In this document: one piece after another, positions 28,338-29,587 of the stretch
Layout of the letters: each line of letters starts with the position of its first letter
Numbering within the stretch: position 1 is the first letter of the stretch
IMG/VR virus record: IMGVR_UViG_2541047915_000012
Length of the DNA stretch: 38,067 nucleotides
From: a virus
Taxonomy: Duplodnaviria; Heunggongvirae; Uroviricota; Caudoviricetes
Direction: 5' to 3' (one strand)
Notes under the pieces: model-generated
What the model was told of the DNA's origin: nothing
Seen by the model: the letters and a program-made list of their open reading frames with translations, nothing else
Database searches by the model: none
Program-made: the position numbers and the translations under genes

Positions 28338-28409
28338 TGAAGTGGTTTACTGAATTTGGCCACCTGAACAGAGGTGATATGCTCACCTCAGAACAACACA
28401 GGTGCCATA

Positions 28410-28712
28410 ATGAAAAAAAGAAATTTCAGCGCAGAGTTTAAACGCGAATCCGCTCAACTGGTCGTTGACCAGAATTACACCGTGGCAGATGCAGCCAGCG
28501 CTATGGATGTCGGCCTTTCCACAATGACGCGATGGGTGAAACAATTACGTGATGAGCGGCAGGGAAAAACACCAAAAGCCTCCCCTATTACCCCGGAACA
28601 AATTGAAATCCGTGAGCTCAGGAAAAAGCTACAACGTATTGAAATGGAAAATGAAATATTAAAAAAGGCTACCGCGCTCTTGATGTCAGACTCCCTGAAC
28701 AGTTCTCGATAA
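28410..28712 (+). CDS. orfA: IS911 OrfA
   Basis: Identical translation to copy 1 OrfA. Confidence 0.85.
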
Positions 28713-28738
28713 TCGGGAAACTCAGGGCGCGTTATCCT

Positions 28739-29557
28739 GTGGCCACTCTCTGCCATGTGTTCGGGGTCCATCGCAGCAGCTACAAATACTGGAAAAACCG
28801 TCCTGAAAAGCCAGACGGCAGACGGGCTGTATTACGCAGCCAGGTACTTGAACTGCATGGCATCAGCCACGGCTCTGCCGGAGCAAGAAGCATCGCCACA
28901 ATGGCAACCCAGAGAGGCTACCAGATGGGGCGCTGGCTTGCTGGCAGACTCATGAAAGAGCTGGGGCTGGTCAGCTGTCAGCAGCCGACTTACCGGTATA
29001 AACGTGGTGGTCATGAACATGTTGCTATCCCTAACTACCTTGAACGGCAGTTCGCCGTGACCGAGCCAAATCAGGTGTGGTGCGGTGATGTGACCTATAT
29101 CTGGACGGGTAAGCGCTGGGCGTACCTCGCCGTTGTTCTCGACCTGTTCGCAAGAAAACCAGTGGGCTGGGCCATGTCGTTCTCGCCGGACAGCAGGCTT
29201 ACCATGAAAGCACTGGAAATGGCATGGGAAACCCGTGGTAAGCCCGTCGGGGTGATGTTCCACAGCGATCAAGGCAGTCATTATACGAGCAGGCAGTTCC
29301 GGCAGTTACTGTGGAGATACCGGATCAGGCAGAGTATGAGTCGGCGTGGAAACTGCTGGGATAACAGCCCAATGGAGCGCTTCTTCAGGAGTCTGAAGAA
29401 CGAATGGGTGCCGGCGACGGGCTATGTAAGCTTCAGCGATGCAGCTCACGCAATAACGGACTATATCGTTGGATATTACAGCGCACTAAGACCGCACGAA
29501 TATAATGGTGGGTTACCACCAAACGAATCGGAAAATCGATACTGGAAAAAACTCTAA
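28739..29557 (+). CDS. orfB: IS911 OrfB
   Basis: Identical translation to copy 1 OrfB. Confidence 0.85.
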
Positions 29558-29587
29558 CTCGGTGGCCAGTTTTTGTTGACCACTTCA

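Follow-up and report, generated by a model that had tools for sequence, protein, structure and literature searches.

The second of three identical insertion sequences in a CUS-3-like (P22-like) prophage of an Escherichia coli K1-type lineage is the scar of an IS-mediated deletion, and the DNA that has gone from beside it contained the replication module of the phage. We put the probability that this copy marks a real IS-associated deletion of that module at about 0.9. The DNA analysed (hereafter the window) is a stretch of 38,067 nt, and the closest intact, IS-free relative of its prophage, which served as the main reference, is the prophage of E. coli DSM 30083 (= ATCC 11775), referred to below as L006. 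A preliminary description of the window had proposed an IS-associated deletion of the replication module and had named alignment to an intact relative as the test of that proposal. The alignment bears it out: the two sequences that flank the second IS copy, far from being adjacent in L006, are 3,559 bp apart, with a helicase gene and the initiator gene O between them. What can be seen directly is where exactly the breakpoints lie, which DNA was lost, that the IS is intact and that it has no target duplication; for the route by which the deletion arose, we favour homologous recombination between two direct copies of the element, at roughly even odds.

The IS element and its three copies

The three IS copies, each of 1,250 bp, are 100% identical to one another and all lie in direct orientation, as established by exact comparison within the window (Table 1). 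The ends of the element are of the IS3-family type (5'-TG ... CA-3'), and its two ORFs are laid out in the overlapping frames of that family, with an A6G motif for −1 frameshifting close to the end of orfA (window 28661-28667). The terminal inverted repeats are imperfect: they take the form TGAAGTGG...CCACTTCA, and 23 of the first 40 positions match between the two arms. With inverted repeats, orfA, orfB and A6G motif all intact, the element looks, from its sequence, like a complete and functional member of the IS3 family.

In its length, inverted repeats, orfA/orfB pair and A6G motif, and in the 3-bp duplications at copies 1 and 3, the element resembles IS911 and ISEc52, which belong to the IS3 family and transpose by copy-out-paste-in. 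It differs from IS911 in that copy 2 has no duplication and in that its nucleotide identity to an element labelled IS911 family by PGAP (in the EC12 prophage described below) is 94.1% over 1,250 bp. By the ISfinder convention, a nucleotide identity below about 95% denotes a different IS, and copies 100% identical to those of the window, present in sister genomes, carry the PGAP label ISEc52. Given that label and the 94.1% identity, 'IS911-like (ISEc52)' is probably the more accurate name; the earlier designation as IS911 holds for the likeness but probably not for the name.

Copies 1 and 3 had been described as bearing perfect 3-bp duplications (ATA and ATG, respectively) and copy 2 as lying between CCT and GTT, and exact comparison gives the same result. 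The duplications at copies 1 and 3 are real, since the corresponding empty sites in the IS-free L006 hold one ATA (L006 3154-3156) and one ATG; the probability of a 3-bp match between flanks by chance is 1/64.

Table 1. Positions of the IS copies, flanking genes, aligned blocks, lost segments and related deletions. L006 is the IS-free prophage of E. coli DSM 30083.
Feature	Window position	Strand	L006 position	Description
IS copy 1 (ISEc52 / IS911-like)	23797-25046	+		Simple insertion; flanks ATA/ATA; duplication at 23794-23796 and 25047-25049
IS copy 2	28338-29587	+		Full-length; flanks CCT (28335-28337) / GTT (29588-29590); no target duplication
orfA, copy 2	28410-28712	+		100 aa; HTH_Tnp_1 domain, Pfam E = 6e-14
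orfB frame, copy 2	28739-29557	+		DDE integrase core: rve (E = 1e-31), rve_3
IS copy 3	31806-33055	+		Simple insertion; flanks ATG/ATG; duplication at 31803-31805 and 33056-33058
ninB 3' fragment	28095-28337	-		80 codons and stop; frame lacks a start codon and continues unbroken as far as the IS
Truncated small ORF 3' of cII	29554-29700	-		Frame runs into the IS end; stop after 48 codons
cII	29723-30016	-		Intact; Pfam Phage_CII; the rightward early operon has no further complete gene ahead of the deletion
SNP	30322		10738	A, where intact relatives have G; immediately adjacent to an OR1-like operator (ATTTAAGTGTTCTTTAAT, cro strand) and 3 nt 5' of the cro Shine-Dalgarno sequence
Aligned block	20641-23799		1-3159	100% identity
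Aligned block	25047-28337		3154-6444	100% identity
Aligned block	29585-31805		10001-12221	Two SNPs in 2,221 nt
Aligned block	33055-38067		12218-17230	100% identity
Lost: 5' end of ninB				First 168 nt (56 codons); Pfam NinB
Lost: two small ORFs				Frameshifted hypothetical gene and phrog_1165 ORF
Lost: DnaB-type helicase gene				Pfam DnaB / DnaB_C, E = 1e-77
Lost: O-type initiator gene				Pfam Phage_rep_O, E = 7e-15; phrog_345 (O-like)
Lost: 3' end of the 90-codon phrog_2519 ORF				Last 160 nt
L004 deletion (AH21I008 and ESBLEC_HM50)			3157-8999	One ISEc52, flanks ATA / AAG, no duplication
L005 deletion (AHB22)			2272-9899	One ISEc52, flanks GGT / CTT, no duplication

The genes on either side of copy 2

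The left flank of copy 2 is, as had been stated, an internal part of a ninB reading frame that has no start and remains open up to the IS. Its translation matches positions 57-131 of the 131 in the Pfam NinB profile (E = 2e-29), the N-terminal 56 codons having gone, and its sequence is 100% identical to that of L006, up to L006 6444.

On the right, the gene that follows cII is cut short, again as described. Nucleotides 29588-29700 (minus strand) correspond to the first 113 nt (37 codons and 2 nt) of a 90-codon ORF directly after cII, which belongs to phrog_2519, a family of unknown function, and which gives no match in Pfam. In intact relatives, this ORF sits between cII and O. The cut gene had been located where the replication initiator is expected, but it is not the initiator: the phrog_2519 ORF is a separate gene, without a Pfam match, that precedes O.

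The last three bases of the IS, TCA, are the same as the native bases to the left of the right breakpoint (window 29585-29590; L006 10001-10006). In formal terms, this leaves 3 nt of uncertainty in the position of the right breakpoint, and native sequence can be read in the small ORF as far as the second base of codon 39. This explains the 38 codons counted in the preliminary description, of which 37 codons and 2 nt are native and the rest is the TCA coincidence. The match is probably due to chance (1 in 64).

Extent and content of the deletion

Apart from the IS copies, the window from position 20641 onwards aligns with L006 in four blocks (Table 1), and the junctions are exact to the base. 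Copy 2 stands in place of L006 6445-10003, a segment of 3,559 bp that is not found elsewhere in the window. The earlier statement that the replication genes and the 5' end of ninB are absent is thereby upheld, although its estimate of 2.5-3 kb for the missing DNA falls short of the size found. CUS-3 itself was rejected as the intact reference because its ninB allele differs and the alignment of the left flank ends 240 bp before the IS. With Kapi1 and Gally as references, the deletion would measure 2,937 and 3,452 bp, respectively, but these values are superseded by that from the 100%-identical DSM 30083 prophage.

The replication module of L006 is of the lambdoid O/P type, consisting of a Phage_rep_O initiator gene with putative internal iterons and a helicase gene. 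The repeats in question form a 12-nt array within O (L006 9284-9426; consensus about TTCATGTGCGGC), which has at least eight units and lies wholly within the DNA lost from the window; by analogy with lambda, it presumably represents the iterons of the phage origin.

The arrangement at copy 2, thus, has the signature of an IS-mediated deletion: the IS is intact, it has no target duplication, and its flanks are non-contiguous in an IS-free relative. A duplication that is hidden, or that has decayed by mutation, is rejected on the basis of the base-exact alignment with L006, where the flanks are so far apart; realignment brings no duplication to light.

It is most improbable that the deletion owes nothing to IS recombination or transposition, with the IS having entered a break in a concerted event, having inserted at an older junction or having lost its duplication through decay. 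The last of these is excluded by the distance between the flanks in L006, and insertion at an older junction would have made a 3-bp duplication, of which there is none. The TCA that the IS end has in common with native DNA at the right breakpoint would suit a deletion that was not caused by the IS, but a 3-nt coincidence is expected in 1 of 64 cases, and there is no microhomology at the left breakpoint of copy 2, nor at the junctions of the L004 and L005 prophages described below. As regards entry into a break, movements of IS5 and IS481 have been observed at the centre of large rearrangements without duplication, and break insertion has been put forward to account for them (PMC11708052); this is a proposal only, and it concerns other IS families, such that concerted insertion into a DNA break is a minor possibility here.

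Related deletions in sister prophages

Three complete genomes contain prophages nearly identical to that of the window, and in each of them a single ISEc52 without a target duplication bounds a deletion (L004, in AH21I008 and ESBLEC_HM50, and L005, in AHB22; Table 1). These deletions take the helicase gene and either the whole of O or its 3' part. In L004, the IS has a left junction identical to that of copy 1 in the window, and on its right side the DNA is deleted into O; no complete genome contains the right junction of copy 1. When 5,426 complete E. coli genomes were searched with flank, IS and flank, both junctions of copy 2 proved to be absent from all of them, and the same set yielded no candidate precursor, be it a CCT-duplicated IS in ninB or a GTT-duplicated IS in the small ORF. 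Relatives, therefore, give no indication of the order of events.

The window and the three sister genomes are linked by a private SNP. An A at window 30322 is common to exactly three of the 256 complete genomes that have this immunity region, and these are the three with the IS-bounded deletions, which places the prophages of the window and of the three genomes in one lineage. All four sampled members of the lineage (the window included) are without the helicase gene and without an intact O. The deletions in the window and in L004 are independent, because each prophage keeps DNA that is absent from the other. The DNA kept in L005 is, on the other hand, a subset of that kept in L004, the deletion in L005 containing that in L004 on both sides, and L005 could, therefore, derive from an L004-like state. 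Hence, the ISEc52-bounded deletions of the lineage comprise at least two, and possibly three, independent events. Alternatively, a single ancestral IS could have hit the O/helicase genes, to be followed by erosion in both directions in each descendant.

The second of the two SNPs that separate the window from L006 lies at window 31130 (L006 11546), in the intergenic region between cI and N. Here, A is present in the window, CUS-3, UTI89 and Gally, and G in L004, L005 and L006. Such a distribution is at odds with the grouping by position 30322, and hints at recombination or recurrent mutation.

We think it unlikely that the repeated loss reflects selection rather than neutral decay, that is, selection to disarm a neuO-carrying prophage, perhaps leaky or toxic through the SNP in the PR leader, with the IS acting as a recurrent tool of domestication.

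The sister genomes also bear on the possibility that copy 2 is an artefact of assembly. The true state would then be four copies, two of them with duplications and located in ninB and in the small ORF, respectively, and the assembler would have skipped the 3.56-kb segment between these two, which would leave exactly CCT, IS and GTT. The source of the window is a scaffold of several megabases (KE702029.1) in a public assembly of about 2013 (GCA_000460795.1), which, from its accession series, we suspect to be a short-read draft, and a mis-join is possible between 1,250-bp copies that are 100% identical. Nevertheless, we regard such an error as very unlikely: the window is free of Ns and gaps, copies 1 and 3 are resolved with their correct duplications in the same stretch, and the three finished genomes of the sister lineage bear real deletions of the same kind around the same genes. 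In addition, the truncated 48-aa ORF created by fusion at the right junction, which the source assembly annotates as a gene, is found on a single contig, KE702029.1 itself, and this contig is recorded in two samples.

The route to the deletion

Recombination between two direct copies, the route that we favour, would involve three steps, of which the first is copy-out-paste-in transposition, with details as in the IS911 literature. Two such insertions, in direct orientation and each with its own duplication, would have occurred, one in ninB (with CCT) and the other in the small ORF (with GTT). The two 1.25-kb copies, being identical, would then have recombined through the homologous recombination system of the host, an exchange that removed one copy along with the DNA between them. 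One chimeric copy would be left, with half of the duplication from one insertion on its left and half of that from the other on its right.

This route is favoured because copy-out-paste-in normally yields simple insertions (PMC11708052), because identical direct copies have demonstrably accumulated within a few kilobases in this prophage and because all of the copies here are direct; the substrate for recombination is present, in the form of several identical direct copies within 9 kb of the prophage. Against it, three events are called for (two insertions and a recombination) as opposed to two for an adjacent deletion, no precursor is found among the 5,426 complete E. coli genomes, and the three direct copies in the window have not recombined.

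The principal rival, which we consider possible but hold with less conviction, is a transposase-driven adjacent deletion in one step. A single duplicated IS (e.g. with GTT, in the small ORF) would have attacked ninB, the 3.56 kb in between being lost; the attacker would be the other end of the IS, or the IRR-IRL junction of a transient tandem dimer, and the product would retain one original flank and acquire one new flank. Two events suffice in this case, and the sister prophages fit well: the IS of L004 has a left junction unchanged from that of copy 1 and a right end at a new site in O, which is the classic picture of an adjacent deletion. Similarly, the deletion in L005 encloses that in L004 on both sides, as expected for repeated erosion from one IS; the nested pattern looks like stepwise outward erosion from one resident IS, and is simpler to explain by adjacent deletion. 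There is also precedent, in that 14 IS150 events without duplications in the long-term evolution experiment were so classed, and IS3 with a fused orfAB makes adjacent deletions (PMC11708052, PMC8860574). However, the simple insertions that are the normal outcome of copy-out-paste-in (PMC11708052) argue against this reading, one-step events need unusual intermediates or overproduction of transposase, and the 5,426 complete E. coli genomes include none with a single duplicated IS at either site. Moreover, recombination between two copies would leave an identical end sequence; sequence cannot, therefore, separate the two routes.

In the literature, IS copies without a target duplication are attributed either to inter-IS recombination or to adjacent deletion, and two members of the IS3 family, IS150 and IS3, make such deletions by both routes (PMC11708052, PMC8860574). 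The deletion at copy 2 is like those of IS150 in the long-term evolution experiment and of IS3 in having an intact IS, no duplication, flanks that are non-adjacent in the ancestral arrangement and a loss of the intervening DNA; it differs in that the window is from a natural isolate without a sequenced ancestor, and so we infer, rather than observe, the order of events and the enzyme responsible.

Consequences for the prophage

The other two IS copies also affect genes or regions with roles in the phage cycle. Copy 3 is inside the gene for the N antiterminator (start at 31563; arginine-rich N-terminus), where a TGA at the beginning of the IS ends N about 18 codons early. Copy 1 is located in the interval that separates Q from the holin gene. 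A PR'-like promoter (11/12 match to the sigma-70 consensus; L006 3367-3396) lies at the end of Q, about 210 nt upstream of the copy, which would, judging by this position, cut off the lysis and structural genes from the late leader. With no origin, initiator or helicase, the prophage can presumably no longer replicate as a phage and is likely to be carried passively. Taken together, the loss of replication functions, the truncation of N and the interruption of the late leader would render it defective several times over, although neuO and the virion genes are kept.

For annotation purposes, the prophage should be called defective, with the proviso that it still has neuO (for phase variation of capsule O-acetylation) and a full set of virion genes. 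It provides an example, resolved to the base, of an active IS3-family element grounding a prophage, for which an IS-free, ancestor-like sequence is at hand, as are sister genomes in which the same region has been deleted again with other endpoints. The case illustrates known mechanisms and ordinary prophage decay: the IS family, the type of prophage, the missing-duplication signature and the occurrence of IS911 in a nin region are all known. What is mildly unusual is only that one small lineage has lost the same module repeatedly, with differing boundaries.

Comparison with other phages and prophages

In Shigella phage Sf6, which is also P22-like, IS911 lies in the nin region, and deletions of 1.2-4.0 kb occur around it (PMC5630979). 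Sf6, thus, shares with the window an IS911-type element in the nin region of a P22-like genome; however, its deletions remove the IS and were selected in a replicating phage, whereas the window retains the IS, has lost the replication genes and represents a resident prophage.

A lambdoid prophage of E. coli EC12 (NZ_CP070229; IS at L009 6342-7590) has an IS911-family element without a duplication (CAC/GTG) that adjoins a 58-codon remnant of ninB, just as copy 2 adjoins a ninB fragment in the window. The two cases differ in that the EC12 prophage is unrelated, its IS is another variant, and its deletion is much larger, reaching the xis/int end. On the other side of the EC12 element is a truncated TraR/DksA gene near xis/int, and the prophage lacks its replication and immunity regions.

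In type, the prophage of the window is CUS-3-like and P22-like (Lederbergvirus); it has the orientation of CP000711, the heptad repeats of neuO and the attachment end on the dsdC side. Its likeness to CUS-3 (from E. coli K1 RS218, CP000711) extends to orientation, gene order and neuO repeats, and to an identity of 97-99.9% over most of its length. CUS-3 differs in having no IS, another allele of ninB, and intact O, P and nin genes; it is, as noted, the DSM 30083 prophage and not CUS-3 that is the closest intact IS-free relative. The window opens (nt 1-97) part-way through a series of 13 or more GAGTCTT heptanucleotides, which is cut by the window edge; this is the neuO poly-psi phase-variation tract of CUS-3-type prophages. 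Two segments, 3635-10365 (the immI/ant side and part of the injection genes) and 33056-33955 (the ral side of the early left operon), do not align with CUS-3 at the megablast level, and look like mosaic module replacements.
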